DNA of 64,000 nucleotides from Lewinellaceae bacterium (GCA_020636225.1 JACJYI010000007.1:82352-146351), one strand, 5' to 3'. Shown: positions 26,406 to 47,124, numbered from the stretch's first letter. Translations and numbers: made by a program. The notes: generated by a model not told the origin, from the sequence alone.

Positions 26406-26599
26406 GGTCGTATGAAATTTGAATGATTCAGGTTGGAGCAAGATAGCAAATCATGATGAATCCAGCGCCTAATTTTATATCGGTCGTAGATTTGTACTAC
26501 AAGTCTCAACAAAAGCATGTGACATCTCAAAGGAAAATACCAACGCAATGCAGACTAATTTTCATCCGCTAACTTAGCCCTTTCGACATCCGTGGACAG

Positions 26600-26975: not shown

Positions 26976-27314
26976 ATGGACAAAATCGCTATAACAATAA
27001 CTAATCTTCGTAAAGAAAAAGGATGGTCACAGACCGACCTGGCTGATAAAAGTGGGGTATCTCGTGAGATGATCGGCAAGTACGAAAGAGGCAAAGCGGT
27101 TCCTTCTGTAGATGCAGCCAAAAAAATAGCCGACGCTTTTGACGTCAGCTTAGATTATCTTGTTGGTGAAGGCATCAATGCCACCTTTGACAAAAAGACT
27201 GTCTCAAGACTTCAGGAAATTCAAAACATGGACTCCAAGTCTAAAGACAACCTTTTTAATATTATCGATGCTGTCATTCGTGATTACAATACTCAGAAGG
27301 CTTATGCTGGATAG
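26976..27314 (+). CDS. XRE-family helix-turn-helix transcriptional regulator
   Basis: LRKEKGWSQTDLADKSGVSREMIGKYERGKAVPSVDAAKKIADAFDVSLDYLVG is a canonical HTH_3 sequence. Confidence 0.85.
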   Translation: MDKIAITITNLRKEKGWSQTDLADKSGVSREMIGKYERGKAVPSVDAAKKIADAFDVSLDYLVGEGINATFDKKTVSRLQEIQNMDSKSKDNLFNIIDAVIRDYNTQKAYAG

Positions 27315-27745
27315 TCTTTTAGATACTCTTCTTTGACTGCTGTTTTTGGTACAATAATCAAGTCTTCTTTTCTATTCCAAGGTATTATACCTGGGATATT
27401 CGCACCCTCAAAATAAGTCAAAAATTGATACCATTCTTCAACTAATTTGACCATCTCTTCTGTAGGTATTTCAAATGGCTCAAACTCATCGAAGTAACCA
27501 CTAACTTTAGTAATTTCGCTTTCAATAAAAATATCACATTTATCTTCTGCCTCTAATTTTATTACTTGTTGACTACTCTTAATTTCTCTTAACTTTTCGA
27601 GAAGGTCAAACACCTTATTAGATTTTGCCAACTCTCTTCTAAAAACATAACTTATAGGGTCATATTTTATCGGCCCAATATTCATTACTGGAACTTGATC
27701 TCCATTCTTTAATATCACTAACTTATAACTTCTTGTCCACCACAT
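27302..27745 (-). CDS. Putative immunity protein for the upstream EndoU toxin
   Basis: 147 aa, acidic, with no signal peptide. It starts 9 nt after the toxin stop on the same strand. The assignment is positional only. Confidence 0.45.
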   Translation of the reverse strand: MWWTRSYKLVILKNGDQVPVMNIGPIKYDPISYVFRRELAKSNKVFDLLEKLREIKSSQQVIKLEAEDKCDIFIESEITKVSGYFDEFEPFEIPTEEMVKLVEEWYQFLTYFEGANIPGIIPWNRKEDLIIVPKTAVKEEYLKDYPA

Positions 27746-27754
27746 ATTTGAAAA

Positions 27755-30097
27755 TTAAGGAAAGTTAGGTAATACAGGAAATGCTGAAATCACATGTCCA
27801 TCAGCATGCAAATAATAATTAATCAGTTGTCCTCCTTGTGTGGTTCCCTCCCATATGTTTCCAGAGGTATTTGTAGGATTATTATTCATAACATACTTCA
27901 ATTCATCCATAACTCTAAATTCATCCCACGAATCAGGCCAAAACGATTTCCTACCTCCGCTACTAAATACAGCTCCATAAAATCCCTCACTTGTTTCTGA
28001 TATTCTATCAACCAATTTTCTGGCATCGTCATTCAAAATAGCAGATATATGATGACGTCCACCTCCACTGTCTCCTCTAAAAATATGCTTTACTGTTTTG
28101 TCAGTTATAGCAGGATGATTTGCATGACTTACAACATCATCAATAGGCTTTATTCCTCTTTGAATCGCAGCAGATAAACCTTCAAGGACATTTGTATTTG
28201 TTTTAATTGTAGTCGGACAATTAAAAGCAAACTCCCACGCCTTAACCCCATCATCACCAAAAGTCTCAATAAACTGTCGGAACTCAGGACTAGCTGAAAT
28301 CAAATCACGATGAAAGGATTGGGCTATCTCATTACTACTGAAGCCATACTTTTCAACAAAATTCTTTAATGCTGGTGAAATATCATCTGTTATGGAACCT
28401 ACTTTAAGCAGTCCATTTGCTTCTTTCTTAACCGTAAATAAATCTGAAGAAACTTTTACAAAATACTTCCCAGCTTTGTAAATGATATACAATTCAGTCC
28501 CAATAATAAATGCAGACAATATTGCATTACCATAGTCACCCTTATATAGATATAATAAACCTTCAGTTAAACCAGCTGCAATGGCAACTGGTGCAGAAGA
28601 GACCACACCTACTGCTCCTGCTACAAATATATATGTATCTACATCCAGCAGAACCTCTCCAGTTTTATCTTTAATTTCATTCAATAATGTAAACATTGAA
28701 AAGGAATCACCCTCCCATTTAGTCCCTAGTGGTTTAAATGACATAAAATAATTGCCACTTGGATCATACAGCCAATAGTCATAAGAGAGACCATCCTCAT
28801 TCCATCGGTAATAAACCCATCCTTCATATGTAAGCTGCCAAAAACCTCCTGTGCCATCAGGCCGAATAACAATATCCTTATCTAATGAATACGGGCCCAA
28901 ATCCATTTTTTCTGGTGCACCTTTATTAGGGCAAGGATATAGACCGTTATTTGTATAGTCAATAACCTTATATTGATTAGTATCACCGTACGTATAGGGA
29001 AGGATATTATTATAGTCATTAAAATTATCCATTCCCAACTGATCATCAAGCCTGTCTGGAACAAGAGTATAATCCCAATCAAAATTATGACTCACCAGGC
29101 TATCAACTCCGCCATCCCTTGCTAAATCGACAAATGGAACTGGGTAGTTTAAATTGTACACGTGAGAAACACAATTCTCTCTGGCATTCCCAACATTGAC
29201 TTGAGCAATATCCCCAATCCCCCAGTGCTCTTTAAACGCATAAGCATTAGTCCCCTCCTTACAATTATGGCGATAACCTGCAAACTTTTCTAAATTAGCA
29301 CTATAAACACAAGACCTGTAAAATACATCATCAATCAAGAATCCATGCAAGGTACCATTAGGTTGAAAAATGGCATTACTCGGATAGCCTGGAAATGTTA
29401 CAACAGCACCCGTCTCTGAAACAAAATTCAGGTTAAAGAATTTTTCAGAAACATCAATCGGGAAGGCACCCGGAATCTTATGCTCCACCATTTCACTCAA
29501 CCCTGAATTGCACTCCAGTGAACGACCTATGCTTGATCTTTCATATCCGCGGCTTTCTTGATTTAAATAGCAACATACACCTTCTCTGAGCAAATAGAGC
29601 AAACGGTCAATTGCCATCATCGATGCAAGCATGTAATTTTCAGGTTTCCCACCATAAAAAACGTCAAACTCAATCTGAACTTGATTTTCAATATATTCAA
29701 TATTAATACAACTATCTAGACTACAATTTAAGCTCAGTTCAACGAATATCTTTGACCAAACACCCTTCACATCAGACAACTTATTAAAAAGCAATCGATT
29801 TTGATTATTTGCGAGTCCTCTGCTTATATCCAAGATATCTGATGTATCCATTTGGGCAGTATTGTGCACATATGCACCAAAATCATAAACTCTAAAGTCA
29901 AGAGGGAAGATGTTTGAATCAAGTGCAATATTTACCTCCTCAAAATAATTGATCACTTCAGAAGCCTTGGCTTCCAATGCAGGTTCATATACACTCCTGT
30001 CCATTCCAGATTGATCTGGAAGCAGGAGGAAGTTGTCTTGAGACCTGGCTTCAACACTAAAAAATAAACCTAGAATGAAAAATATAAATATCCGCAT
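27755..30097 (-). CDS. Polymorphic toxin with a C-terminal bacterial EndoU-type RNase domain
   Basis: It has a signal peptide (MRIFIFFILGLFFSVEARSQ), a long N-terminal region and a hydrophobic segment (YIFVAGAVGVVSSAPVAIAAGL...FIIGTELYIIY). The C-terminus reads KHIFRGDSGGGRHH...SFWPDSWDEFRVMDELKYVMNNNP...GHVISAFPV and matches the EndoU_bacteria pattern. Confidence 0.65.
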   Translation of the reverse strand: MRIFIFFILGLFFSVEARSQDNFLLLPDQSGMDRSVYEPALEAKASEVINYFEEVNIALDSNIFPLDFRVYDFGAYVHNTAQMDTSDILDISRGLANNQNRLLFNKLSDVKGVWSKIFVELSLNCSLDSCINIEYIENQVQIEFDVFYGGKPENYMLASMMAIDRLLYLLREGVCCYLNQESRGYERSSIGRSLECNSGLSEMVEHKIPGAFPIDVSEKFFNLNFVSETGAVVTFPGYPSNAIFQPNGTLHGFLIDDVFYRSCVYSANLEKFAGYRHNCKEGTNAYAFKEHWGIGDIAQVNVGNARENCVSHVYNLNYPVPFVDLARDGGVDSLVSHNFDWDYTLVPDRLDDQLGMDNFNDYNNILPYTYGDTNQYKVIDYTNNGLYPCPNKGAPEKMDLGPYSLDKDIVIRPDGTGGFWQLTYEGWVYYRWNEDGLSYDYWLYDPSGNYFMSFKPLGTKWEGDSFSMFTLLNEIKDKTGEVLLDVDTYIFVAGAVGVVSSAPVAIAAGLTEGLLYLYKGDYGNAILSAFIIGTELYIIYKAGKYFVKVSSDLFTVKKEANGLLKVGSITDDISPALKNFVEKYGFSSNEIAQSFHRDLISASPEFRQFIETFGDDGVKAWEFAFNCPTTIKTNTNVLEGLSAAIQRGIKPIDDVVSHANHPAITDKTVKHIFRGDSGGGRHHISAILNDDARKLVDRISETSEGFYGAVFSSGGRKSFWPDSWDEFRVMDELKYVMNNNPTNTSGNIWEGTTQGGQLINYYLHADGHVISAFPVLPNFP

Positions 30098-30342
30098 TGC
30101 AACTGGGTGATAGTGGCTAAATTCATTCATATGATACTCCATTAATTAAGATCATTAAATATTCCATAAAACAGTCAAAATAAACAGGAATCCATAGTGC
30201 AGCTTCAACGACTTCAAGTAATCTTAATAAGGTTTTTCACCAAAACTAATTCCATCTACGCTTCCATTCAGATAAACGATTCAGGAGAAAACAAAGTCAC
30301 TTTCAATAGTGCTTCAAATTATCCATGTGTAAATATTTCAAC

Positions 30343-31404
30343 TTACTTTTTTACAACTTTGCCTAAACATCTACCTCCTTCCATCACAATCCAATAGACT
30401 CCTGAAGGCAACATGCTGATGTCTGCATCAATTATTGTCTGTTCATCTGATAATTTTTGTATTGACAGCTCAAGTGATCCTATACTACTGAAGAAATCAA
30501 TTCTATTAACTGCTTTGGCCACCCCATTATCATTAATCTGAATTTGCATCAAACCTGTAGTTGGCGAAGGCCAAATTTTGGCATCCTCAGCATTTTCTAT
30601 TGCCATGAAATTCCCTCCAATCTCAACAATGCATTCCTCCTTGACAACAGAAGTTAGGCTCCACAGTACATTTGAAGTATCCTCGGCATTCTGAATGTGT
30701 GGCCCTCGCCCAAAAAGCACTTGTTGATTACTTCCACATTGCACATTCCACACTACATCAGAATGATTAGTAATAGGATTGGTATATTCCAGGATTAGAT
30801 CACTATCATCTGCCCAATGGACACTGACTGCCTCACTGATCGAATTGGCCACTCCCAATAGCACATTGCCAAATGTTATCCCAAAACCATGGTTTTCACT
30901 TTTAAACCCATGGACATAGAGGAATAAACGTTCATTTTGATTTACCTCAAGTGCTGCACCATAATTGTTCTGCCCCTTCGGACAACCCATCATCTCAAAA
31001 TAATCCACCTCGCCTGCTCTCAACCCGGTAGCTCCCATGCAGCCAGAATGACCATCAGCAGACCTCCCTCCCCCTACACATCGTACCGCCTCCAAAGCTC
31101 CGCAGTCATTCCCTTTGAACAATGTAAAATCCAGATCCTGATCCGGATCATCCGGTACCAGGTCAAAGGCCAGTTGGCCACTCCGCCCGATCTTCAGCTC
31201 CAGCCAGATACCGGCTACCTCCTGAAAATCGTCCACACAGGGCATGGCCCCATTATCAGTCAGGGTACCCTCAAAGAGGTGATCGATATGCATGTATTTG
31301 TTGCATGTCACCAGTAATGGTGTGGCACAACTGCTACCATCTTGGGCCAGGAGGGCAATGGATATTAATGATAGTGTCGTCATGAAGATCAGGCTTCGGA
31401 TCAT
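30343..31404 (-). CDS. Secreted protein with PPC-like N-domain and T9SS C-terminal sorting domain
   Basis: It has a signal peptide (MIRSLIFMTTLSLISIALLAQ), the DLDFTLFKGNDCG motif and a C-terminal IWPSPTTGLMQIQIND...LPSGVYWIVMEGG CTD. It starts 12 nt after the FN3 gene. Confidence 0.6.
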   Translation of the reverse strand: MIRSLIFMTTLSLISIALLAQDGSSCATPLLVTCNKYMHIDHLFEGTLTDNGAMPCVDDFQEVAGIWLELKIGRSGQLAFDLVPDDPDQDLDFTLFKGNDCGALEAVRCVGGGRSADGHSGCMGATGLRAGEVDYFEMMGCPKGQNNYGAALEVNQNERLFLYVHGFKSENHGFGITFGNVLLGVANSISEAVSVHWADDSDLILEYTNPITNHSDVVWNVQCGSNQQVLFGRGPHIQNAEDTSNVLWSLTSVVKEECIVEIGGNFMAIENAEDAKIWPSPTTGLMQIQINDNGVAKAVNRIDFFSSIGSLELSIQKLSDEQTIIDADISMLPSGVYWIVMEGGRCLGKVVKK

Positions 31405-31416
31405 CTTCGATATTGT

Positions 31417-33627
31417 TTACAGATTGAAGATCAAGGTGGAAGGTTCGCTCATCGGACTGGTGGTGCCGTCGTCAAACAGGGCTACCACTTTATATCGGTA
31501 TCGATGGGTATGCTGCACCTTGTGGTCAATAAACCGGTAGGTGCCGCTCACATTCACCGAGGAAGTAACAGAATCATACATCCCCTGTGCTTCACTCAGA
31601 TTGTACACGGCGTACTGCACATACGGGTTTCCATCCTTCGACCGGTAGATCTTGAATCCGACCAGCTCCTTATAGAATCCATAATTCCATCCGATTGCAA
31701 TTCCGATTTTCTTGTTTACTGAAGGGCCTGTACCATTAATATCAGATATATCGATACTGTCCACTGCCGGCCACATGGGAGAAAGGCCCTGAAGAGTGGC
31801 CACGTTGGATAAAGATGTGTTCCCAGACAAGTCAATAGCTTCCACAACATATTCATATGCCTGTTTGCCATTGGCCACCGAATCAATGTAATTCTTGTCA
31901 GAGGGGCTGTGTGTTACTTCAGTAAGAATCTCCCAATCTGGCAAACCCATCCGTCTTCGCTTGATGCGGTATTTGTCCATATCTGTACTACTACTCGGTG
32001 TCCAATAGATCCGGTTGACATTGGCCTGGGTGCCACTTCTTGTGATCACAGCCGGACTTGGAGGTACCACATCTGGGAGGGAGATCATGGCCGGATCAGA
32101 AAACTCAGACAGGTTCCCATTATAGTCAACAGCTTTGATCTTTACCCAGGTGGAGGACTCCAAGGTTTCCAACTCGATGATGTATTGGAAGGATGTGTCC
32201 CGAACTGGTGTCAGGGTTAATTGTGTATAAAACAAGGTATCCCGATTGCTGTAGAATACCCGATATCCATCCACATCCTCCTCCAAGTTGGGTGTCCAGC
32301 TGACCGTAACCTGGCCCAATGTACTGACTACCCCCACCGGTGTAGCCGGTTTGCCCGGAGGGATTGTATCCAGCAGTTGAGCAAAATGGGACCAGCATTC
32401 CGCGTGATACCCATGGATATCGTACACCTTGACTTTGTAGTAATTGCCCCGCAATGGTGTCGCATCCTGCCAGGTTCGCACAGTAGGCCCGAGCAAATTG
32501 GCCCCGGATACGACCTCGTACGGCCCTTCATCCCGATGGCTACGCAATATCTCGAAGCCTTCGATCTCGCTATTGTGTTCTGAAGGATACTGCCAGTACA
32601 CTTCGATGACTTCATTGTCAACCACATCCAAACTGTCAATTCTTGGTATGATACCCACCGGATTGGGGCGGTTGAGCACATGGATGGTGTCCGACCACGC
32701 CGAGGTGCGTCCGAACGCATCTTTTCCACGCACCCGATAAATGTAAGTCTGACCAATCTGGCTGACCGTATCAATATGCATGAATCGATCAACAAACTTG
32801 TCACTGACCGGTGAATTCAGCATCGGGAGATCCGACAGGTCGGAGAAGTTAATTCCGTCCTCCGACCGCTCAATGTCATAGCTGATAAATTCCCTCTCAT
32901 ACCCCTTCCAGCCGAGGGTCATATAGCCGCCCTTCCCAAGGCCAACCATAAATTGAGGAACATGGGCAACAAACAGGGTATCGTTGCAACTTAACTTGAC
33001 ATAACCAGATAACAATACGGGTGACACTGAATCACCCAATAGTTCTACCCGATATATATAGGTGGTACCAGCTACGGCTGAAGTATCCACAAACCCAAGA
33101 CCAGAGAGATGGGCGGCCATAAAGGAATACTCTCCTGCCAGCAGGTTCATTTGATACCGGTTTTCCCATTCTGTATCCAGCTTGTAGGCCTGCATCAAGG
33201 CACTGGTATCGCCCAGGGAGATTTCAAGGGAATCACCGAATATGGCCCCTCCGGCCAGCTCGACATTGGCATCTTGCAATGTATCCATCAATTCACCCCA
33301 GATGGATGTATCTGCAGGAAGAACGATTGAATCCAACACAACCAAGGTAGACAGGGCATTAGGTGGCACACTGTCTGTATAGCTATGGACATATCGACTG
33401 ATCCTATACCCATTTGCCAAACCCTGTTTCCAAAATTCTTTTTCGGATGGAGCCCATCGAAGTAGAATGGAATCGCAAGACAACACAGCTCCACGTATGG
33501 ATAACAAGGGAGCCTTTGAAGAGATGGTCTGGGCGCTTACCCATCCGGTCAGCATGACAACCAGAACACTACAGGCAATCAGCCGTCCTTTCAACCGGAT
33601 ATGGAAATATTCTATTCTTTTTTTCAT
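31417..33627 (-). CDS. Secreted fibronectin type III repeat protein
   Basis: It has a signal peptide and several FN3-like modules (e.g. VTVSWTPNLEEDVDGYRVFYS, RIYWTPSSSTDMDKYRIKRR). Confidence 0.6.
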   Translation of the reverse strand: MKKRIEYFHIRLKGRLIACSVLVVMLTGWVSAQTISSKAPLLSIRGAVLSCDSILLRWAPSEKEFWKQGLANGYRISRYVHSYTDSVPPNALSTLVVLDSIVLPADTSIWGELMDTLQDANVELAGGAIFGDSLEISLGDTSALMQAYKLDTEWENRYQMNLLAGEYSFMAAHLSGLGFVDTSAVAGTTYIYRVELLGDSVSPVLLSGYVKLSCNDTLFVAHVPQFMVGLGKGGYMTLGWKGYEREFISYDIERSEDGINFSDLSDLPMLNSPVSDKFVDRFMHIDTVSQIGQTYIYRVRGKDAFGRTSAWSDTIHVLNRPNPVGIIPRIDSLDVVDNEVIEVYWQYPSEHNSEIEGFEILRSHRDEGPYEVVSGANLLGPTVRTWQDATPLRGNYYKVKVYDIHGYHAECWSHFAQLLDTIPPGKPATPVGVVSTLGQVTVSWTPNLEEDVDGYRVFYSNRDTLFYTQLTLTPVRDTSFQYIIELETLESSTWVKIKAVDYNGNLSEFSDPAMISLPDVVPPSPAVITRSGTQANVNRIYWTPSSSTDMDKYRIKRRRMGLPDWEILTEVTHSPSDKNYIDSVANGKQAYEYVVEAIDLSGNTSLSNVATLQGLSPMWPAVDSIDISDINGTGPSVNKKIGIAIGWNYGFYKELVGFKIYRSKDGNPYVQYAVYNLSEAQGMYDSVTSSVNVSGTYRFIDHKVQHTHRYRYKVVALFDDGTTSPMSEPSTLIFNL

Positions 33628-33671
33628 TTTACTTCTTTCTTAACGGTGAAGGTTTCCCGAACGGCTTGCCG

Positions 33672-36600
33672 TTAATGTTGCCAGGGCAGGGTTACATCAA
33701 ACGAACCAAATCCCTTGTTTGTCTTCTGTTTGGGTGAATACCAGAATCGAATTTTTGTATCAGAGTTCACTTCAACAGAGAGGCTTTGTGGCAACCGGAT
33801 GGTGTTATACAGATCTTGACTTTCAGAAGTTGTAAATAGATCCTTCAAACAAGGCGGCAATAATGAATATGGTTGTCCATGGGCATAGTCGGCTAGTGGC
33901 CCATGCCCCTGCTCCCCACAGCCGGTTTGCACATAATCAATATAGTTCATTCTGTCAAACTGGACCTCCATCGCATTCGTCAATAATGGCAGATCTTCCT
34001 GCAAATACCAGGGAATGGTGTTGACCAATACCAACTGGTCGTACCGTTGATTCTCACCATTTATTTCAACAGTTCCTGCTGAATCCTGCATGGCAAAGAA
34101 TACACTTTCGCTATAATAGTCATTTATCTCCGCGCTGAAGAAAAGTACATCAAACGTCAAATCAGCACTCAACACAAACTGACCCGGTGATCTATTGGCA
34201 ATAAAATAGCGGTATGGAGCAAGCCATGTTGTAGAGGCATCATCCACAACTTTCCAGTTGAAAAACGGGGGCAGGCCATTGTACCCATGGATTTCATAAT
34301 CATCAAATCCTTCAAACCCGGACAGGCGGTAGGCCACTGGTTGGCCAGTCAGGATCGTGTCGAAAGACATTGAATTGACCATCGCCTGCATTTTCTCTGT
34401 CCACGTATCATGCAGGCTGGTTCTGAACGGAATGGAAAACAACACCCGTTCGGTCTTCAAGGTATCGTCAAAATCGGTATTGGCCATACACTTGACAAAC
34501 CCATTCATCGAACCACCCGGCAATCCCTGAGGCCAGGATCCTACCACCGGATTGATGAGCTCACGTGATGTGCCATTTCCGGAAAATCCACCATTGCCTT
34601 CACCACCAAAGACAGGAGGTTCAGGAGGGTCATCCACTTTGAATCCCTGAAGGATATCCAATGTATATTGGGTTTCCGGCTCAGTCACCGACCAGTCCAC
34701 CTCAAAATTAACCTGGTTGCTCTGGCAATCATAAAATACAGGTCCTTCGGTGATGACTTCCTCTCCTTGCTTCAGGCGATACATGCTACGCGCATTTACT
34801 GGTACTTTAGCAAACAAGTAGTATTGGCCCGATGCCAGTTTTACATAGGCATGCTTGGCATCGGCATCCCCAGGCAAGAAATATTGCTGTCCCTCATGAG
34901 GATAACTTTCTGCCACATTGTCCGGGAGAATGATATCTGGCAGTTCTCCGGTTGAGAAACTGCTGATCAGCGTGTCACGATCCTGTAGCTCACCATTCAC
35001 CTCCACATACGCATACGCTTTGATCTGGTAATTAAAATCCGGACGTAAAAACTCCTTAAACTTGACGGCTATTTCCATTCCCCCTTCCTGCCTGGACCAA
35101 CTGAATTTTTCATTTCCAGCGCTGGAAATAAAATCAATACGCTCGATCTTGATGAGGTATATGGATGTATCCTGACCCTCAACACGCTCTATGGGTGTAT
35201 CCACCGGATAATTCATGTAGATCACCGGGCTGACGTTCACAGCGACATCCTGAGATCCATGAGCAGGATCCATATAATCAAAGACAACCAGATCCATTAC
35301 ATAGGCCGAAGAATCAGGATTGAGCAATTCACATTTTGTCCCGAATTCTACATTGAAGCGAGTTGAACCTTTGATGATACCCAGTATATTGTAATTCGCC
35401 TTGACAATCCCCTGTGCCCATACGGGATTGGGCAACTGGGCACGCAATAAGATACCAGCTTGTATGTCGGCTATGGTGCCTTTTCGTTCCTTAAAAAGGA
35501 ATTTGAACTTGTACCCCAGGTGAGCGGCCAGGTAGGCATACATCTGCCCCGTGGCATACCAACCATTGATGCCCGGCTTTTCGTAGTTATGCGCACACAA
35601 TGCATCATACTGCATCATGGCCAGATCATACCCCACTGTCAGATTGGCGTAGAACGTAAAGATCCACACCTTGGTGGTATCGGCATTCAGGGTAAATTTC
35701 GACCCATGCATGAATCCGCCACCTTTGGCCATTTGGGAGTTGAGTGTAAACGTTGGTGGTACATCAAAAAAGTCAGATAGCTCACCCTCCAATTCAGCTA
35801 CTTTTGGAAGTCTGGAGCCGAGGCAGAAATAGGTAGTAAAAGTAGCGTCTATACCTGGCACGATACTGACCCGCATACCTCCAGGTTGGTTAGGCTCACC
35901 GACCCACAAATACCAATCTTTTGGGCCTATTTTAAATCGCACATCACTAAGCTTGCCAACATCCGAAGAATCAGCTATTCCTATCAACACATTTCCAAGA
36001 GACATGTAGGACTTGAAGTTGGCATCAAATGTATTTTCAGAGCTATCGTATGATAAATTAAAAAATGCCCTGATTGGTCCTTCTGCACACATACCTTGAT
36101 CCAATGGGTCGCCACCTGACTCATCATAGGTGGAAGGGGCATCAATATTCAAGGCAGCCATACATTGGAAATTGCCAAGAATGTTCAGTGTAAATCCCCC
36201 TGTTTCTTCAAAGATGTTCATGGCAAATGAGGCATTCCCATTCAATGCTTCCTCACTTTCTGCCGTCATGAATGCCATGGCCAGTTTCAATCCCCAGGAA
36301 TGATTGAATGGCGTATAGGTAACCCCTGAAAGACTTAGCCCCAGTCCACGATTCTTTATCATGTCGGTGGTCACCGAATCCTGAGACATAGCCGAAGACA
36401 ATTGCACATTGTCATGTCCACTTGAAGCCATGTTGTACCAGAATCCTCCTCCAAAACCGTTCATTACCAGGGGTGGAAACAGGGGGATCCCACCCGGAAT
36501 GGTGACCATCACATCCACCATGCCATACTTGTATCCTTCATTATGCTTACCGAACATGCCCATGGCCTGTACAGCACCTTCAAATTTGGCAAACTTGACA

Positions 36601-39600
36601 GCTACAGCTCCCTGGAAACCTGTTCCATACTGGCTATCATTTTGATACTTGATCAATGAGCCTTTGATATAATCGACTCCCGTGCAGCTGCCTTCAATGG
36701 TGATCTGGTAGAAATTGAACTTTTCATATTTCCACTTGTGATGAATGGAGCTGGTGTCAATGTATCCCTGAATACCAAAATCAAAGGCCACCTTCAGGTC
36801 AACCCCACTGGTTGTCAGCCCCATGTCGGTCAGGAAAACCGCTTCAATGGCGCCCGGTTGGTTCGGGGCCTCCCGTAGTCCGATCCTGTCAAAATTGAGT
36901 TCAAATCCCAGGTAGTCAATTCCTTTTAATGGAAAGGACCAATATCCGATGTTGCGGATCGCCTTTCCTTTATTGGACAGGATCACCTGATCAAAATGGA
37001 TATCTTCAATGGCCAGGGGGTCGTCGCCATCCTTCTGGATATCCAGAGTTCCGTTGAGGGTAGCAATTACTTCAAATCCACTCCCTCTGTCGAACATGGA
37101 GATGGAGGTATTCGGGTACAAGGTTACATCTGCATAGATAGCTGGAGCCCTCAGGGCACTATTCACTTCCAGGTCAAACTGGAATCGTCCGTATGAATCC
37201 AAAAATGCCAGGTAACTGAAACAATCCATCGGCTTGATGGTATCCGACTCATTCTCTACCGATTTAAACAGAGGCACATGGAGGTATCCCTGCATATTCC
37301 CTTTGTGGAAACGGTTTTCCAGCACATGGATGGCCAATGTATCAATGGAGAAGCCCCATCCCGAACAGGAACCCTGATCCAAAGGCAACAGATTTCCGGC
37401 ATTGATCTGTCCACTGGCCCCATAATCATCGAAGACAAAATGCTGTAGCCCCAAGGTGATGTTACCTGAGTCCTTCCTGGCCATATCCTGGGGCAAGGTC
37501 ACATTCAATTCTTCAAAATATACCCCTTGCCAGGTGGTCTCACCCAGCATCGGATGACTGTATCCATCCGGGTAAATGATGCCTTCCGGGTTCAAGGCGT
37601 CACTGAAATCCAGCCAAACATTGTCCAACCGAAATTTGTACTCTTCTTTTTTGGTGACCGCAAAAGGGTCCACATCAATCTGGACAAGAATATCTGACCA
37701 GGAATCGAAATCACCTACAATGGATGCGGTGACATAACCGTCACTCAGTGGCTCCAATGTGACTGAATCCAGGGGGGTCAAATACTCCCGACAAAACTCG
37801 ATGTTGGCTTCAACAGAAAGCCCTTCAAAACCCGTGCAACCCCAATTGATAAATGTTTGGCCATTCTCTCCGACCAGGGTCAGCCGCATGGCTTTGCCCA
37901 ATGGAATGGGGGGTGAATTGTTCAGGAGCGTTATTTTTCCGGGCACTTCAAGCCCCCCCGGATTGAATGCAATGTCTTCCGCACCAAAGAGGACACGTTT
38001 CCCGGATTGCACCTCCAGAATAAACCAGGCATCCAGAGTGGCTCCCTGAGGGTTGACGACAATGGAATCCAGATAGATGGTATAGGTCAGACTGCCGATC
38101 TCCCGATTCAATTCCAGAGGCTGGCCAAAAACTTCACTTCCGCCTGAGACAGGCATGATTTCAGCCTTGAGTCCCGTCTTTTTCAGTTGGTTTATCTTAT
38201 CGTCTATATCGTCACCTGATACAGACGCATAGGGCCTGGCTTGCTCAAATAAGTTATCTACCCAATCCGGGGCTGCACTACACCCGACTCCGGAGGGGAA
38301 GCTGGTCTGCAAGACTTCCGGTTGGAATGGTCTATGCAGGACTCGTTCCAATGGAGAACTTGAACGGGGCTCCCGGAAGGCAGAAACAACATACTTTCCA
38401 AAACGCAATTGAAAATCTTCAACCAATTTGGCGTACACCAGGTTTTTTACAAAAAGCTTGAGTTTCTGGGCAGTACCGATATGTTCGGCCAACTCAGCTG
38501 AATCCATGGACATGATATACGGCTGAATGAACGCTTGAAAAGGCGCCAATGCATCATCCTGGTTGGTTTGAAGCAGCTGAATGATGGAGTCCAGCAAATG
38601 CTCCATGTTCAGGAGAGTGTGCAGGTATTTGTCGCAATGGTACAGATCAAAATGGTGTTGTTCCAGTGCCATAATCTGTTCATCCCTGCCGGAAAAGTTG
38701 CTGTACTTCTGAGGCTCGCGTACAAAATGCTGATGCAACCCCTCCTGGAAATACTCCCCGTTCTGACCAAACAGGAAAACGGTGTCCAGGCCTTTGGCGA
38801 CGACAATATCCTCCATGTCATCCCGGATATTCCCGCAATTACCCCGATATACCCCAATCAGGCTGTCATTGAGCCAGTCGAACTGTTCGATGCTCCAAAT
38901 GATTGCTGAATCCACTTGGGTTTCATGGGCACTCCAGAATTTTACTCCTTCATCAGTAGGATTCCCTCCGGATGGAATCAACCAGTAATAGGGAGGGCTG
39001 GCCTGAGGGTTACATGGATTACCCAGTGAATCCACTCCAGCCTGGCTGCATCCGTTGGGATTGTAAATGGTTCCAGTTTCCACATGGATTCCATTGGCAT
39101 TAAATCCATTCGGATCAAAATTAGGATTAAAGGGCATCCCCTCCTCCCAACCGGGGTATGGCGGAATCTTCTGATACAACCCACTTGAATCAAAACCAAA
39201 TGAATTCAACCCGGTAATGGGATCAAAGGCATAGGGATCAGGTGAAGGTGGGATGCAACTGAAGGTTGCCGGTGCCGGTTGGACCATCAAATTCTGCATC
39301 CTGGTTCTGGCGTTTGCATCATTTTTGACCTTGATGTCTCCTGATTCGACTATGAAATCAGTGTTCACCAAAATGGATGAAAACTCGACACCTACACGCT
39401 TATTTCCAAAAGGAACGGCCATGGTCCCGGTGCCATTGTACACACCATTCCCTTGATGGAAACGGGTTTTGACAATAACCGGAAACCCGTACGCCAGAAT
39501 CACATCGTTTACCTGGAGACCCGTGTACGGGCTGCCGCTGACCACTGCGGTGTCAGGAGTGGTACCACAAAAGATGTCCTGAAAGGTCGTATCCCCCAGT

Positions 39601-40583
39601 GTTTGAATGGTGACATCCGGAGGCATGTTCTCACAGAAGTCGTCAATGTCAAAGCGGGAGCTACCGAACGAAGCTTGAACGGAGATGTCATAATAGGTCC
39701 CGGATTGCAGCGGAATCATCCGTACATGTGAACTGTCTTGCCAGGTTATCTCCGTCCATTGGTCACTTCCCTGAACTCTGTACCGTGCTCTGTACCAGGG
39801 GCCATTGGCATAAAACCCGGGTGCAGGTCCACTGACTGTAACCGTGACACCATCTTCGGTGATATCGGATACAGCAAAGGAATAGGAAAGACTTGAGCAA
39901 TCCACTGACCGACTTCCGTCATCCAGATCCGGTATCGGAACGTGAACCCAATCCGAGTATAACAATACACCATTTTGATACCGGCACAACTTCCGAATCA
40001 CCATGGATTGGAGTGCTTTGATTCTGTCCCGCTCAAAGCTGTAGGTGGATGTTGGATCACAATCAATCAATGCGGTTTGGGCGGTCTCATGCTCTCCGGT
40101 CAGTTTGATCTGAAATCCTTCAGCATGTTGTGGAGCAGGGTCATGCCAGTTCAACTGGATTAAATCTTCATCAATAACATCCCAATAAATACCAGAGGGT
40201 CGTTCACACTCCGGCCAAAAGGAAAAGGGGACAGATTGATAGACAGGATTGCCGGTCAATGCTGAAACAAGGACAAATGTGTATTGATCTCCTCCGGGAA
40301 AGATGGCTGAAGGATGCGGAATTTGGACGGAGGTCACGGGCCAGGACATCCATTTGGTCCAGAGTACTTTTTTCTCATCATCCAAGATATGGATAATGGC
40401 TGCAGATTCCGAGATATGCAGATTGGGCAAATTCAACACCAGTACATCCTGATCGACCAGATAGGTGGGTGAGCTGACCGGGTCAACGAACGCACAGGAC
40501 GACAGTGATTCTGCCATCGCTGTATGGAGGGGGAATAGGGTCAAGACAACCAACAAGGCTTTCCATGGGTGTAGAAAACTCAT
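33672..40583 (-). CDS. Giant secreted protein (about 2303 aa), no recognisable catalytic domain
   Basis: It is an uninterrupted 6.9-kb ORF in AT-rich DNA, so it is certainly coding. It has a signal peptide (MSFLHPWKALLVVLTLFPLHTAMA) and two FN3-like modules near the N-terminus. The rest looks beta-rich and is unassigned. Start at the ATG at 40583 (the track uses the TTG at 40610). Confidence 0.5.
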   Translation of the reverse strand: MSFLHPWKALLVVLTLFPLHTAMAESLSSCAFVDPVSSPTYLVDQDVLVLNLPNLHISESAAIIHILDDEKKVLWTKWMSWPVTSVQIPHPSAIFPGGDQYTFVLVSALTGNPVYQSVPFSFWPECERPSGIYWDVIDEDLIQLNWHDPAPQHAEGFQIKLTGEHETAQTALIDCDPTSTYSFERDRIKALQSMVIRKLCRYQNGVLLYSDWVHVPIPDLDDGSRSVDCSSLSYSFAVSDITEDGVTVTVSGPAPGFYANGPWYRARYRVQGSDQWTEITWQDSSHVRMIPLQSGTYYDISVQASFGSSRFDIDDFCENMPPDVTIQTLGDTTFQDIFCGTTPDTAVVSGSPYTGLQVNDVILAYGFPVIVKTRFHQGNGVYNGTGTMAVPFGNKRVGVEFSSILVNTDFIVESGDIKVKNDANARTRMQNLMVQPAPATFSCIPPSPDPYAFDPITGLNSFGFDSSGLYQKIPPYPGWEEGMPFNPNFDPNGFNANGIHVETGTIYNPNGCSQAGVDSLGNPCNPQASPPYYWLIPSGGNPTDEGVKFWSAHETQVDSAIIWSIEQFDWLNDSLIGVYRGNCGNIRDDMEDIVVAKGLDTVFLFGQNGEYFQEGLHQHFVREPQKYSNFSGRDEQIMALEQHHFDLYHCDKYLHTLLNMEHLLDSIIQLLQTNQDDALAPFQAFIQPYIMSMDSAELAEHIGTAQKLKLFVKNLVYAKLVEDFQLRFGKYVVSAFREPRSSSPLERVLHRPFQPEVLQTSFPSGVGCSAAPDWVDNLFEQARPYASVSGDDIDDKINQLKKTGLKAEIMPVSGGSEVFGQPLELNREIGSLTYTIYLDSIVVNPQGATLDAWFILEVQSGKRVLFGAEDIAFNPGGLEVPGKITLLNNSPPIPLGKAMRLTLVGENGQTFINWGCTGFEGLSVEANIEFCREYLTPLDSVTLEPLSDGYVTASIVGDFDSWSDILVQIDVDPFAVTKKEEYKFRLDNVWLDFSDALNPEGIIYPDGYSHPMLGETTWQGVYFEELNVTLPQDMARKDSGNITLGLQHFVFDDYGASGQINAGNLLPLDQGSCSGWGFSIDTLAIHVLENRFHKGNMQGYLHVPLFKSVENESDTIKPMDCFSYLAFLDSYGRFQFDLEVNSALRAPAIYADVTLYPNTSISMFDRGSGFEVIATLNGTLDIQKDGDDPLAIEDIHFDQVILSNKGKAIRNIGYWSFPLKGIDYLGFELNFDRIGLREAPNQPGAIEAVFLTDMGLTTSGVDLKVAFDFGIQGYIDTSSIHHKWKYEKFNFYQITIEGSCTGVDYIKGSLIKYQNDSQYGTGFQGAVAVKFAKFEGAVQAMGMFGKHNEGYKYGMVDVMVTIPGGIPLFPPLVMNGFGGGFWYNMASSGHDNVQLSSAMSQDSVTTDMIKNRGLGLSLSGVTYTPFNHSWGLKLAMAFMTAESEEALNGNASFAMNIFEETGGFTLNILGNFQCMAALNIDAPSTYDESGGDPLDQGMCAEGPIRAFFNLSYDSSENTFDANFKSYMSLGNVLIGIADSSDVGKLSDVRFKIGPKDWYLWVGEPNQPGGMRVSIVPGIDATFTTYFCLGSRLPKVAELEGELSDFFDVPPTFTLNSQMAKGGGFMHGSKFTLNADTTKVWIFTFYANLTVGYDLAMMQYDALCAHNYEKPGINGWYATGQMYAYLAAHLGYKFKFLFKERKGTIADIQAGILLRAQLPNPVWAQGIVKANYNILGIIKGSTRFNVEFGTKCELLNPDSSAYVMDLVVFDYMDPAHGSQDVAVNVSPVIYMNYPVDTPIERVEGQDTSIYLIKIERIDFISSAGNEKFSWSRQEGGMEIAVKFKEFLRPDFNYQIKAYAYVEVNGELQDRDTLISSFSTGELPDIILPDNVAESYPHEGQQYFLPGDADAKHAYVKLASGQYYLFAKVPVNARSMYRLKQGEEVITEGPVFYDCQSNQVNFEVDWSVTEPETQYTLDILQGFKVDDPPEPPVFGGEGNGGFSGNGTSRELINPVVGSWPQGLPGGSMNGFVKCMANTDFDDTLKTERVLFSIPFRTSLHDTWTEKMQAMVNSMSFDTILTGQPVAYRLSGFEGFDDYEIHGYNGLPPFFNWKVVDDASTTWLAPYRYFIANRSPGQFVLSADLTFDVLFFSAEINDYYSESVFFAMQDSAGTVEINGENQRYDQLVLVNTIPWYLQEDLPLLTNAMEVQFDRMNYIDYVQTGCGEQGHGPLADYAHGQPYSLLPPCLKDLFTTSESQDLYNTIRLPQSLSVEVNSDTKIRFWYSPKQKTNKGFGSFDVTLPWQH

Positions 40584-41033
40584 CTGCAAACTGTTGAAAT
40601 GATAATACAATCCTATATCGACATGACCGATAAATCCCTTGAGGACAAGAGTTCAATCAGTCATTCCTGTATTTCTGGAATGACGTTTGTGGCACCAGAA
40701 ACAAATTTGCCTCTTTCGGCAAGGTTCATTTCAAAATAAATCTGTCGGTTGCGAAGTAAATATAGAATTTGAATTGAATATGTAGTACATGTTCACAATA
40801 AAAACACAAAAGTTAATACTGACATTACACATATGTGCAAAACGCGAATCCCGGGTAGATGACCGGACAATGAATCGGCTATAACAGGGTATGAGTGGCC
40901 GATCAATTCAATGGTATCCCATCGAAAATGCATACACATCAGGTGACAAACCAATTAATAACGCCTAATGAGGGAATTCTAAACTTGTACAATATGGCGA
41001 AATCGGTCAATGTAGTGCCCAGAGAATACGAAA

Positions 41034-41059
41034 CACCATGTTTACACTATGCTTACACC
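41034..41059. repeat. Arm-type repeat pair inside attR (caccatgtttacac, tgcttacacc)
   Basis: It shares a 14-nt identity with the tandem 11-mers at 17592-17613, in the same orientation, and lies 49-75 nt from the att core. Confidence 0.55.
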
Positions 41060-41060
41060 G

Positions 41061-41098
41061 GAAAAGAAAAAAGGAGTTGCAATTTCTCGCAACTCCTT
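41061..41098 (-). terminator. Rho-independent terminator for the tRNA-Val/tRNA-Pro transcript, supplied by the island
   Basis: On the minus strand, 12 nt after the tRNA-Pro 3' end, a perfect 10-bp stem aaggagttgc/gcaactcctt forms with an 8-nt loop. It is followed by ttttttcttttcc. Confidence 0.7.
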
Positions 41099-41108: not shown

Positions 41109-41154
41109 TGTCGGGGTGACAGGATTTGAACCTGCGACCACACGCCCCCCAGAC
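41109..41154. repeat. attR: 46-bp direct repeat inside intact tRNA-Pro
   Basis: Identical to 17421-17466. Confidence 0.9.
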
Positions 41155-41184
41155 GTGTACTCTACCGGGCTGAGCTACACCCCG
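41111..41184 (-). tRNA. tRNA-Pro (anticodon GGG)
   Basis: The reverse complement is CGGGGTGTAGCTCAGCCCGGTAGAGTACACGTCTGGGGGGCGTGTGGTCGCAGGTTCAAATCCTGTCACCCCGA. It folds as a cloverleaf with a 7-bp acceptor stem, anticodon loop CTGGGGG and a TTCAAAT T-loop. CCA is not encoded. Confidence 0.85.
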
Positions 41185-41196: not shown

Positions 41197-41274
41197 TGGT
41201 GGGTGTTACAGGATTCGAACCTGTGACCTCTACCCTGTCAAGGTAGCGCTCTAAACCAACTGAGCTAAACACCC
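41197..41274 (-). tRNA. tRNA-Val (anticodon GAC), CCA encoded
   Basis: The reverse complement is GGGTGTTTAGCTCAGTTGGTTTAGAGCGCTACCTTGACAGGGTAGAGGTCACAGGTTCGAATCCTGTAACACCCACCA. It forms a clean cloverleaf with anticodon loop TTGACAG. Confidence 0.9.
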
Positions 41275-43178: not shown

Positions 43179-43375
43179 GGTAACAAGGTTTGAACAAGTA
43201 TAGCAAATTTTCCCAGCCTGTTTGCTCCAGGGGGCCAATTCCTGTTCAGGGGAATGGTGTTTCTGACAGGTTTGTCTTTGTCCGACAGTTCTCTCCTTTT
43301 TCTGGGTGCTTCGGTTCGGATGAACTATTTTTGTTGTTCTACACTTTCATGTCTTTGATCAAGAACCAGGTGCTC

Positions 43376-46300
43376 ATGTCTATTCGAACCTTCCTGGCTG
43401 CCGTTGCAGCCCTTCTCTGCCTTGCTCCCCTCAGTGGCCAGACCCCCTGGGTCAGGACCGACCGGGCCTTTATCACCGCCCAAACCGGGGATGCCTATGT
43501 CATGCCCCATACAGGTGACTTCTACCAATTGGATTTCTCGCAATTGGTCCAGTCCCTGCAACAGGGGGCCAACACCATCCTCCTGCCGGACGCCCAGGGC
43601 CAGCTCATCGAGTTCGACGTCCAGTTCAGCCGGGTGGCCGAACCGGGTTATTACCAGAAACACCCGATGACCGGGACCTACAAGGTCCGGGCAGTACGTG
43701 ACGCCTCCATCCACGGACGGATCGATCATACCCTATCCGGTTTCCACGCCATGATCCGGGATCACGGCCAGGTCTGGATGATCGACCCGGTCTTCAAGGA
43801 CCGCACCGATCTGTACGCCAGCTACCTGAAAGATGACTATCACGTGGAGGGGACTAAACCCGTATTTGAGTGCGAACCCGATCTGGGCATGACCGCGGAT
43901 CCTCAGGAGCCCGTCGGCGCCACCACGGTGGCCAGCATGCGTCAGGCCACGGCCGACCTCCTTCGCTACCGTCTGGCTATGGCCACGACCGGCGAATACG
44001 CCAGCTTCCACGGCGGAACAGTGGCCAAGGTCAGCGCCGAGCTGATCACCCTGGTCAACCGACTGAATGAGGTGTACGAAATCGACCTGGGTGCCCATCT
44101 GGACCTGATCGCCAACAATGACGATCTCATCTTTCTGGATCCTGCGACTGACGGATATACCAATGGCAGCCCCCAGGCTATGCTGCAAGAGAATCCCAAT
44201 GTGATCTCCGCGATCATGCCATCCTCGTCCTATGACATCGGGCATGTCCTGGGCACCGCCCTGGCCGGTGGCACGGTCGGACTGGCCTCCCTGGCCTCTG
44301 TCTGCACCGGCAACAAGGCCCGGGCCATGAGCTCGCTCTTTGTCCCCAAGTTCGATCCCTTCTACGTCGATATCGTCGCCCACGAGTTCGGCCACCAGTT
44401 CGCCGCCCAGCACTCCTTCAACAAGTGTGACGAGATGAATGAAAATCCGTCCACCGGCTGGGAACCCGGCAGTGGGAGCACCATCATGTCCTATTCGGGT
44501 TCCTGTGGTATCAATAATGTCCAGGACAATTCCGGGGCCTATTTTCACGGTGGCAGCCTGGAGCAGATGAAGGTCTTTGTGACCACCGGTGCCGGTGCAG
44601 GCTGCGCCAATGCCGAGCCTACGGCCAATGAGGTTCCCACGGTTTCCCTGTCCTACACCAACGGGTTCACCATTCCGATCAGTACCCCGTTCAAGTTGCA
44701 CGCCGAGGCCACGGATGCCAACAACGACAACCTGACCTATTGCTGGGAACAGATGGATACCGGCCCGATCACTGATGCCGGTTCGCCGGTACTGAACAGT
44801 CCGTTGTTCCGCAGTTTCGATCCTACCTCGGATTCCATGCAATGGTTCCCCCAGCAGTTTCGGATCATCCAGAATTTCAACAGCAAGTTCGAATTGCTGC
44901 CGACCTATACCCGTGACATGAACTTCCGGGTCACAGTTCGCGATAATAACCCGGAGGTCGGTGCGATCGCCCGGGCCGATGTCAGTTTCAAGGCATCTGA
45001 CCTGGCCGGTCCGTTCACGGTGGCCAAGTTCAATACCGTGGATACGGTCCGGCAGGGTGAATATGTCGAAGTCACCTGGAATGTGGCCAACACCGATGTC
45101 TTCCCGGTCAATTGCAAGTCGGTCAATATCAAGCTATCCACCGATGGAGGGTACAACTTTCCTTACGTGTTAGCCTCCAACGTGCCCAACAACGGGTCGT
45201 TCTTCGTGACCATGCCCATCGTCCAGACCACCTCAGGGCGGATCATGGTTGAAGCGGCAGACAATATCTTCTACGATATCAACAATGCCAACCTGCGCAT
45301 CCTGCCTCCCACCCAACCGACCTTTGCCATCAACGTGACACCTTATGAGCAAGTGACCTGCATCCCAGATGCAGCCACCATCACCATCGATGCTACCTCC
45401 CTGTTGGGCTTTACGGAGCCGGTGACCTTCGAGATCACCTCCGGCCTTCCTCCCGGCGCTGTGGCCAACTGGAGTGCCAATCCGGCCACACCGACGGAGC
45501 AGGTGACCCTCTCCCTGGACCTGAGTGGCGTCACCCAGACAGGACTCTACGAACTGGTGATCGAAGCCTCAGCTGCCGGTGCACCCACCCAGGTACGGAA
45601 TGTGTTCGTGGATGTCTATCGCAATGATTACAGCAGCCTGGATGCCCTTTCCCCTGCCAGTGGCACCGGGGGCATCAGTGTATCCCCCCTGCTGACCTGG
45701 GTTGACCAGGCCGATGCGGATACCTATACCGTCGAGGTGGCTACCAGCCCGGCCTTCGGTGCTTCCGTGGTCGCCACACAATCAGGGTTGACGACGGCCC
45801 AGTACCAGGTCACGGCAACGCTGCTGGAGAACACCCTTTATTTCTGGAGGGTCATCCCTTCCAACCCCTGTGGAACGGCCACCGATGTGCCGGTCTATGC
45901 CTTCCATACCCTGACAATCTCCTGCGACGAACTGACCAACAACACCGAATACACCATCGCCAGCACCGGGTTGAACTCTGTCGAGAGCATCATCAATGTA
46001 CCGGTCAACGGTCCGGTCGGACTGGTCCGGGTCAAGAACATCCTGGGCAACCACCAGAACATCGGCAACCTGCGCGGCAACCTGAAGGGCCCCGATGGCA
46101 AGACTCGCCGCCTGTGGAACCCTCAATGTTCCTTCATCGGAGGGGACATCAACATGGGCTTCAACGATGATTCACAGGCAACCTTCGCCTGCCCGCCCGA
46201 CAATGGCGATATCTACAAGAGTGTCGAGCCCCTGGCCGATTTCACCGGTGACCCGATCATGGGCGATTGGTCGCTGATCATCCAGGACATCCAGACCGGT

Positions 46301-47026: not shown

Positions 47027-47124
47027 ATCCAAACAATCGGTTTTGGATCCGATCCTCCGCCAAACCATTCATGAACAAGTCAAGGCATTCGACCATTTCA
47101 TATTCAGCTAAATTGTATTCCAGC

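Follow-up and report, generated by a model that had tools for sequence, protein, structure and literature searches.

A candidate five-gene toxin cassette with a TANFOR-less giant protein in a Lewinellaceae genome

We analyzed a 64,000-nucleotide stretch of DNA from a Lewinellaceae bacterium (GCA_020636225.1 JACJYI010000007.1:82352-146351; hereafter the window), in which three minus-strand genes encode a giant secreted protein, a partner with FN3 domains, and a small protein with a C-terminal sorting domain (CTD) of the type IX secretion system (T9SS). The host genome is that of a Saprospiraceae-like member of the Bacteroidota. Because genes at the fifth position of such loci behave as effectors and the gene order is kept in relatives, the full unit is five genes (27302-40583), including the adjoining polymorphic toxin gene, which ends in an EndoU RNase domain, and a probable immunity gene. 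We put a little above even the chance that this region is a polymorphic-toxin cassette in which a toxin-delivery scaffold has been rewired to the T9SS. Coordinates of all features are collected in Table 1.

An earlier note on this DNA had described three tightly spaced minus-strand genes, and the open reading frames (ORFs) agree: gaps of 44 and 12 nt separate them, and together they span 10.2 kb, or ~43% of a ~23.6-kb low-GC stretch (~17.5-41.1 kb; 43-50% GC vs 58-62% in the background). The giant, the FN3 protein, and the CTD protein each have one hydrophobic N-terminal segment, consistent with the predicted Sec signal peptides that the note had assigned to all three. A polymorphic toxin gene does lie next to the trio, with a CBASS nearby, as the note had said. 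The trio that it took as the unit is real, but the conserved string comprises five genes and includes the toxin. Co-conservation of the trio in other genomes, which the note had named as a check, was found.

Close relatives of the giant are rare. Word-index searches found only ~9 proteins with at least 39% core identity; the first of these searches returned four proteins (43-100% identity), and P0005, P0006, P0008, and P0009 were added later. The clade to which the window belongs is represented by six complete or near-complete loci (L001/L002, L003, L005 from a Saprospiraceae metagenome-assembled genome, L012, and L014). Their gene order runs from the giant through an optional ~560-aa Kelch-like CTD protein, a ~730-aa FN3 protein, a ~350-aa Cys-rich CTD protein, and a 700-910-aa effector-like gene to small ORFs. 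The giant, the FN3 protein, the small CTD protein, and the effector-type gene are kept in this order in 6/6 loci, and the Kelch-like protein follows the giant in L001, L012, and L014. All-against-all BLASTP upheld orthology at each operon position. The five-gene order is conserved in this clade. The most divergent window-type locus has DUF4238 and Abi_C genes just upstream of its giant gene (L001:6374-8468), and at least some window-type cassettes sit in defense-rich variable regions.

The effector combines a conserved N-terminal region with a variable C-terminus that in the window ends in EndoU (Pfam EndoU_bacteria, E = 1.1e-7, 32.7 bits, over cutoff). Its conserved N-region covers aa ~11-667 and includes a hydrophobic Gly/Ala-rich stretch (aa ~497-560), also kept in L014, that may have a role in membrane translocation. 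The window toxin and the L014 effector (L014_793) are 39% identical over aa 11-667 (E = 1e-147), and their C-termini diverge, with EndoU in the window and another module in L014. A second type of N-region is common to the effectors of L001, L003, L005, and L012 (hidden Markov model [HMM] E = 1e-114 to 1e-169), whose C-termini likewise differ from one another (PT-HINT, LysM, or unassigned). L014_793 weakly bridges both N-region types, with a colinear match at E = 0.0033. The 147-aa ORF behind the toxin gene is a probable immunity protein on the basis of polymorphic-toxin gene order. PDB sequence-profile searches of the effector, the effector pair, and the immunity protein returned nothing useful.

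A different toxin occupies the same position in the syntenic locus L005. Where the window has positions 27302-30142, L005:20223-23467 encodes another effector (709 aa) and another downstream gene (378 aa). The GC content of the window genes is 0.37 for the toxin, 0.32 for the immunity gene, and 0.45-0.49 for the remaining operon. Because the values for toxin and immunity gene fall below that of the operon and L005 carries a different toxin there, the evidence points to a recent exchange of the toxin-immunity cassette. An ORF for a 112-aa XRE-type helix-turn-helix protein (26976-27314, plus strand) converges on the 3' end of the immunity gene, overlapping it by 13 nt.

The giant itself gave no Pfam or NCBIfam match at E < 0.1, no PADLOC match, and no CTD, in line with the earlier note's remark that it lacks any recognizable family motif or CTD; it also has no lipobox. 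Pfam detected neither LptD nor SprA in it, and neither Pfam nor NCBIfam gave a DUF490/AsmA match that would indicate a TamB/AsmA-like protein. The Pro/Asn/Gly-rich stretch described in the note is present (~aa 483-530) and highly conserved across the clade, and is not a mere linker. The two FN3-like modules that it placed at the N-terminus fared less well: PDB sequence-profile matches for the giant clade were weak and covered aa ~239-309 (E = 0.05-0.1).

The ~1500 aa of β-rich sequence proposed for the remainder fit a core followed by a constant tail, and AlphaFold2 modeling confirmed the β-rich character for aa 800-1800. The model, built from a 49-sequence alignment (mean pLDDT 85.1, pTM 0.54), is a succession of hairpins formed by ~45 long antiparallel strands (10-21 aa), plus three short helices. 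The best Foldseek matches in the PDB were LptD/LptDE (7omm_A, E = 8.5e-7, probability 1.0), ApoB100, SDBC SlpA, MtrB, TonB-dependent receptors, and ushers. All had a TM-score ≤0.17 and a root-mean-square deviation of ~30 Å, indicating local likeness and no global match; no TamB/AsmA-like protein was among the top 50 PDB structures. A Foldseek search of BFVD gave nothing meaningful. The core is thus best described, from the model, as a predicted all-β meander with no global match in PDB or BFVD. Given TM-scores of ≤0.17, we did not name it a barrel, a tail fiber, or a TamB-like groove.

Word-index searches, which returned 4, 3, and 15 proteins, badly undercounted the family of the giant. An exhaustive HMMER search with a profile of aa 800-1800 showed its size: 2312 cluster representatives scored E ≤ 1e-3, of which 1664 reached E ≤ 1e-30. 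The source names of family members read "hypothetical protein", and the core had no Pfam or NCBIfam match in 32/32 members scanned. The region ahead of the core is highly variable among relatives, and the tail after it is near-constant in length across 153 of them (median 463 aa, interquartile range 445-491). Distant relatives turned up in a scan of GTDB species genomes, in Saprospiraceae, Chitinophagales, Runella defluvii, Ignavibacteriales, and a Chlorobi bin; they match giant aa ~815-1753 (in one case to aa 2102) at 23-25% identity. Over the same core region, L006-L011 and P0158-P0162 are 23-27% identical to the giant (E = 1e-36 to 1e-77). These profile and alignment matches place the giant in a very large, so far unannotated family that is defined by a ~1000-aa predicted all-β core and a ~460-aa tail and that includes giants with a TANFOR domain.

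The core fold may reach beyond the TANFOR-type family. P0007 (L013:10001-15715), a protein of 1904 aa with a faint Pfam DUF6603 match, shows remote homology to core positions 211-790 (hhalign, with a probability of 98.2% and E = 4e-14). Its context is different, beside an Amidase_2 protein and among transposases, and the window giant has no DUF6603 match at E < 0.1. A literature search for DUF6603 gave no papers.

The link to TANFOR proteins came from the relatives. P0159 carries the JGI name "TANFOR domain-containing protein", and the TANFOR model TIGR02542 (T_forsyth_147) matched the N-terminus (aa ~30-190) of P0159 (E = 4.7e-10), P0160 (E = 6e-9), P0072 (E = 5e-7), P0161 (E = 5.7e-5), L011 (E = 1.6e-3), and P0162 (E = 5e-3). 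We compared the window giant with the proteins of the published TANFOR study (Jana, Salomon & Bosis 2020, Life Sci Alliance, PMC7073777) through these TIGR02542-matching relatives. A local TANFOR HMM derived from TANFOR-bearing relatives matched 18 family members and 0/6 window-clade giants, and hhalign of the clade N-terminus against the TANFOR alignment gave a probability of 0.75%. These two results rule out the giant N-terminus as a diverged TANFOR domain. The window giant is, on this sequence evidence, a TANFOR-less relative and not a strict TANFOR protein. In three metagenome loci, the giant-FN3 pair is followed downstream, at a distance of a few kb, by another large ORF that has a TANFOR-like N-terminus and no core-HMM match (L090:15979-21438, L048:18045-21275, and L059:17549-20800). 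Because these ORFs match TANFOR but not the core HMM, the TANFOR domain also occurs apart from the core; the 471-aa Cellulophaga proteins in the published table are another such case.

The published study describes 339 large TANFOR proteins, mostly with Sec signals and almost only from Bacteroidetes, whose neighborhoods are enriched for Fn3 (COG3401), SprB, PKD, and Por_Secre_tail; it could not identify the secretion route (PMC7073777). Many of the proteins end in toxin domains, EndoU among them, and some toxins are encoded in the gene directly downstream, followed by immunity genes (PMC7073777). In its tables, the architecture consists of a ~550-aa upstream gene (as in the Runella and Dyadobacter entries), a giant of ~1500-2500 aa, and a ~660-700-aa COG3401/FN3 gene downstream; a supplementary example has a 1465-aa TANFOR protein between a 561-aa upstream gene and a 666-aa COG3401 gene (PMC7073777). 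These architectures match the distant loci found here. A whole-word literature search found no later work on TANFOR biology, and nothing newer on such a system under T9SS and polymorphic toxins.

The window shares with TANFOR toxins a giant of ~2000+ aa with a predicted Sec signal, the homologous ~950-aa central core (23-27% identity to P0159-P0162, L007, and L011), a dedicated ~700-aa FN3 gene directly downstream, T9SS-CTD proteins nearby, and a nuclease toxin with a small downstream putative immunity gene; a separate downstream toxin gene is itself a recorded variant. It differs in that its giant has neither a detectable TANFOR domain nor a fused toxin. Its toxin is a separate 795-aa protein with a ~650-aa N-region of its own, encoded beyond the FN3 and CTD genes, and the locus has a clade-specific 350-aa Cys-rich CTD protein in place of the ~550-570-aa upstream barrel or PKD lipoprotein partner. 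The window operon is also set in a segment of foreign base composition at a tRNA. The earlier note had given the operon no assignable function and thought it the most likely place in the window for something genuinely undescribed, a view that no longer holds given this homology to published TANFOR-class toxin proteins through the ~950-aa core and the FN3 partner. Mapping to a characterized family, which it had named as a refutation, has thus come about in part: core and FN3 partner match the TANFOR class, and the TANFOR domain itself is missing.

The pairing of giant and FN3 partner is specific across phyla. Full-length homologues of the FN3 partner adjoin every giant examined, including those at each of the distant loci (24-27% identity over ~690 aa). 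A metagenome scan with the FN3 partner alone retrieved 80 loci; where enough upstream sequence was available, local HMM annotation placed a giant-core ORF directly upstream of the FN3 gene in 41/46. One clade of loci (L022, L033, L034, and L038) has a barrel-like gene after the FN3 partner, and no giant-core ORF was detected in the flanking sequence at hand; the giant may have diverged too far for the HMM, or these may be giant-less variants. Between the window and L005, the FN3 partner is 91% identical (31417-33627 vs L005:16879-19146), compared with 74% for the giant, 68% for the CTD protein, and 65-76% for the flanks. The FN3 partner is under unusually strong constraint.

TANFOR-type loci (L007-L011, L015, and L016) have a further conserved protein of ~550-580 aa adjoining the giant (25-33% identity), of which ~30 more copies occur in metagenome loci (e.g., L062:2071-3765). 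This ~570-aa protein has no Pfam or PDB relative. In 24/38 copies it ends in a terminal Phe within a Y-x-Y-x-F type pattern, the classical β-signal of outer-membrane proteins, and its sequence suggests that it is probably a dedicated outer-membrane barrel. Ten metagenome loci fetched with the FN3 partner contain a complete giant. Nine of them have both TANFOR and the ~570-aa partner, which therefore occur together in 9/9 complete loci. The tenth (L017) has neither, and carries the small Cys-rich CTD protein and two effector genes, as loci of the window type do. No homologue of the ~570-aa protein was found anywhere in the window or in window-clade loci, and BLAST and HMM searches gave no signal for a barrel fused into the giant tail or encoded elsewhere in the window. 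TANFOR plus barrel, on the one hand, and CTD protein plus in-trans effector, on the other, look like alternative solutions around one scaffold. The co-occurrence of TANFOR and barrel, which is not discussed in PMC7073777, suggests a two-partner-like export route rather than the T9SS.

Orthologues of the small CTD protein are confined to L001, L003, L005, L012, L014, and L017, that is, to the TANFOR-less clade; a metagenome scan with this protein as query found nothing. Among the operon proteins it alone carries a T9SS sorting domain, as first noted: its Por_Secre_tail match is marginal (aa 277-344, E = 1.5e-5, 25.7 bits vs a cutoff of 27), a profile of five orthologues matches solved T9SS CTDs (7pzj, E = 1.7e-5), and Pfam and NCBIfam found no such domain in the giant, FN3 partner, or effector. 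The PPC-like label once given to its Cys-rich N-domain was not borne out, with no Pfam PPC match in aa 20-190. Por_Secre_tail was the sole Pfam match at E < 0.1, the PDB profile matched the CTD part only, and what the N-domain retains is a set of conserved cysteines.

These observations suggest how the cassette might work. All secreted components would cross the inner membrane via Sec, as their N-terminal hydrophobic segments imply. The giant and its co-evolving FN3 partner, which are strictly co-conserved, would form a delivery scaffold in the envelope or at the surface. In TANFOR-type relatives, export may resemble two-partner secretion (TPS), with the N-terminal TANFOR domain as the signal and the adjacent ~570-aa barrel as the transporter. 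Judging from the mutually exclusive gene content, the window clade may have lost both, relying instead on T9SS-sorted accessory proteins to reach the surface or be held there. The note's idea that the small CTD protein would anchor or escort the others stays conjectural. The toxin would be a separate protein whose conserved ~650-aa N-region docks on the scaffold and whose C-terminal module is exchangeable. Based on its family and the gene order, the EndoU domain would cleave RNA in a neighboring cell, and the cytoplasmic 147-aa protein would guard the producer.

Several observations weigh against toxin delivery by this locus. Export and toxin delivery by TANFOR-type giants are without experimental support anywhere, and T9SS export of TANFOR proteins is a stated hypothesis only (PMC7073777). 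The defining TANFOR test failed for the window giant, which has no TIGR02542 match at E < 0.1, and every such match in the scanned relatives lies under the curated cutoff of 67 bits. Between the window effector N-region and the second effector subfamily, the match is no more than marginal (E = 0.084-0.1). For the 147-aa ORF, Pfam, PADLOC, and PDB-profile searches gave no family match, so that its immunity role has no homology backing. Most sampled family members have no fused toxin and keep a constant C-terminal tail, and the inspected TANFOR-type loci are surrounded by housekeeping genes and have no neighboring toxin. Given these contexts, the giant-FN3 pair may ancestrally have served a purpose other than toxin delivery.

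The same facts feed the strongest alternative, in which the giant-FN3 pair is a structural or adhesive envelope assembly (a surface fiber, an S-layer-like structure, or a gliding or attachment apparatus) and the toxin-immunity module is a hitchhiker in a variable region. The barrel-giant-FN3 loci of the TANFOR type have native GC in addition to their toxin-free housekeeping settings, the 153 relatives compared above show no fused toxin, and the giant and FN3 proteins consist largely of Ig/FN3-like and β-rich modules typical of surface proteins. In the window, 200 nt lie between the CTD and toxin genes, so the two may not be transcribed together. We nevertheless regard this alternative as unlikely, since an effector-type gene follows the small CTD gene in every TANFOR-less locus that is long enough, often at gaps of 2-45 nt, the long conserved N-region of the effectors is specific to these loci, and published TANFOR giants often have fused C-terminal toxins (PMC7073777).

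Less probable again is that the ~1000-aa core forms a very large outer-membrane β-barrel of LptD/SprA scale, inserted by BAM, with the FN3 partner capping or plugging it in the periplasm or at the surface and the effector passing through the pore instead of the T9SS. Such a translocon would fit the run of ~45 antiparallel strands and the Foldseek matches, almost all of the best being outer-membrane barrels with LptD first, and barrel insertion would explain how a protein with a Sec signal and no CTD or lipobox leaves the periplasm. The matches are not global, however, and the pTM of 0.54 despite a pLDDT of 85 suggests several domains and not one rigid barrel. The core is also followed by ~500 aa of tail rather than a terminal β-signal, and TANFOR-type loci already encode a separate ~570-aa barrel that has one.

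The note had included a phage-exclusion barrier among its readings. An anti-phage defense or exclusion system joined to the neighboring CBASS and integrase island is very improbable. A CBASS (SAVED-HNH and CD-NTase) and a tyrosine integrase do share the low-GC stretch, and L001 has the Abi_C and DUF4238 genes upstream. Yet 0/5 proteins match PADLOC (PADLOC-DB 2.0), all components except the immunity protein carry predicted secretion signals, and distant relatives sit in housekeeping contexts. L005 keeps the operon, the tRNAs, and both flanks (win_1259 and win_638 to the DUF7948 gene win_820) with no CBASS or integrase counterpart between them, making it unlikely that the operon is part of an integrase/CBASS element. 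The integrase and CBASS lie beyond the DUF7948/T9SS-CTD gene, which is syntenic in L005, and appear to be a mobile module separate from the toxin operon. The phage-exclusion idea is thus without support, while the toxin-delivery scaffold or conflict role that the note also raised is favored by the effector-type gene in 6/6 clade loci. That the genes are unrelated neighbors with no functional unit is the least credible explanation of all, contradicted by gene order and orientation conserved over phylum-level distances.

Compared with other known systems, a TPS or contact-dependent inhibition (CDI) arrangement (CdiB-CdiA-CdiI) resembles the family by analogy only: TANFOR-type relatives place a giant β-rich exoprotein with an N-terminal recognition domain beside a ~570-aa barrel, and variable C-terminal toxins come with immunity genes. 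In contrast to TPS, Pfam found no TPS/Haemagg_act, FHA-repeat, POTRA, or ShlB match, the window clade has no barrel partner, and its toxin acts in trans. The 353-aa protein and the ~560-aa Kelch-like proteins of sister loci resemble type-A T9SS cargo (PF18962/TIGR04183) in their C-terminal sorting domain, whereas the giant, FN3 partner, and effector lack it and are not canonical substrates. Likeness to LptD and other very large barrels is confined to local three-dimensional similarity of the long antiparallel β-meanders; there is no sequence similarity, and the core of the giant is internal to the protein. P0007 and its DUF6603 match relate to the giant through remote core homology alone.

A broader idea, tentative and on balance doubtful, is that the core, the FN3 partner, and a third component constitute an unrecognized envelope machine for export and delivery found across the Bacteroidota, Ignavibacteriota, and Chlorobiota. 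The third component would be either a barrel with TANFOR as its "address" or T9SS-sorted accessories, and toxins would have been attached repeatedly, fused or in trans, giving a TPS/CDI-like function. If so, the window clade would be a natural "rewired" version, the scaffold and not TANFOR would be essential for delivery, and the T9SS could be co-opted for interbacterial toxin delivery.

The locus bears on how Bacteroidota deliver polymorphic toxins outside the type VI secretion system. The conserved element appears to be the ~1500-aa β-rich body with its dedicated FN3 partner, not the TANFOR domain, and the TANFOR-less clade seems to replace TANFOR and barrel by T9SS-CTD proteins, with separate, exchangeable toxins that have a dedicated N-region. 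New here are the TANFOR-less variant with an in-trans effector and T9SS-CTD protein, a large scaffold family for which Pfam and NCBIfam have no model, and the barrel partner of TANFOR-type loci. If confirmed, these would amount to a parts list for a new delivery system, together with a natural experiment through which to dissect it. For annotation, the "hypothetical giant" can be relabeled as the putative scaffold of an EndoU toxin cassette.

Table 1. Features of the five-gene unit, its surroundings, and the ~570-aa protein of TANFOR-type loci (window positions unless a locus is named)
Feature	Position	Strand	Basis or remark
Giant secreted protein, 2303 aa from ATG	33672..40583	-	Longer TTG ORF starts at 40610
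Giant aa 1-24, probable Sec signal peptide, MSFLHPWKALLVVLTLFPLHTAMA	40512..40583	-	Single N-terminal hydrophobic segment (aa 9-27)
Giant aa 25-330, clade-specific β-sandwich-like modules, weakly FN3-like, not TANFOR	39594..40511	-	PDB profile and HMM
Giant aa 445-535, Pro/Asn/Gly/Cys-rich motif region (PFNPNFDPNGFNANGIH...NPNGCSQ...)	38979..39251	-	Invariant columns in a four-sequence alignment
Giant aa 540-799, helical-looking segment	38187..38966	-	Sequence only; conserved within clade
Giant aa 800-1800, family-defining predicted all-β core	35184..38186	-	HMMER, AlphaFold2
Giant aa 1801-2303, conserved tail at the C-terminus, lacking toxin domain and CTD	33675..35183	-	Tail lengths of relatives; motifs shared in alignment consensus
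Multi-FN3 partner, 736 aa, predicted signal peptide	31417..33627	-	Pfam fn3; FN3 array by PDB profile
Small secreted protein, 353 aa, Cys-rich N-domain and T9SS type-A CTD (30373-30576)	30343..31404	-	Pfam, PDB profile
Polymorphic effector, 795 aa, predicted signal peptide and C-terminal EndoU RNase domain (aa 681-790 = 27773-28102)	27755..30142	-	Pfam
Probable immunity protein, 147 aa, no signal peptide	27302..27745	-	9 nt after toxin gene; position and size
tRNA-Val(GAC)	41197..41274	-	ARAGORN; upstream edge of low-GC segment
tRNA-Pro(GGG)	41110..41184	-	ARAGORN; directly upstream of operon
Terminator-like hairpin, 12 bp stem and T-run, after tRNAs	41071..41098	-	Sequence
win_820, 820-aa DUF7948/β-propeller protein with T9SS CTD	23979-26441	-	Same position in L005, 65% identity
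Tyrosine integrase (Arm-DNA-bind_5, SAM_5, Phage_integrase)	17517-18848		
Type II-like CBASS, SAVED-HNH effector	19414-20586		
Type II-like CBASS, CD-NTase	20583-21776		
Unannotated 237-aa ORF after CBASS	21739-22452		
~570-aa protein, L011 copy	L011:6541-8247		
~570-aa protein, L007 copy	L007:17607-19337		
~570-aa protein, L015 copy	L015:5582-7315		
~570-aa protein, L016 copy	L016:8334-9989		

The surroundings of the operon record part of its history. A tRNA-Val/tRNA-Pro pair precedes the giant both in the window and in the orthologous L005 locus, and because a terminator-like hairpin follows these tRNAs upstream of the operon, the operon promoter must lie within 40584-41070. The flanks of the two loci correspond, with 76% (win_638) and 70% (win_1259) identity for upstream genes and 65% for the downstream gene win_820, which is the far edge of the segment common to window and L005. 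The GC content of the operon is ~10 points under that of its flanks in the window and in L005 alike. We infer that the operon is an old acquisition at the tRNA site, made before the window and L005 species split, and that the toxin cassette was exchanged later.

The window contains no T9SS core genes, making the evidence for the machinery indirect; further CTD proteins are encoded at 23979-26441 and 43190-46969. The latter is the first of two tandem genes (43190-46969 and 47071-50712) for ~1200-aa reprolysin-like metalloproteases, which are 54% identical to each other and have cadherin-like, P-domain, and T9SS CTD modules. L005 has a single copy of this metalloprotease, 70% identical to the first one in the window.

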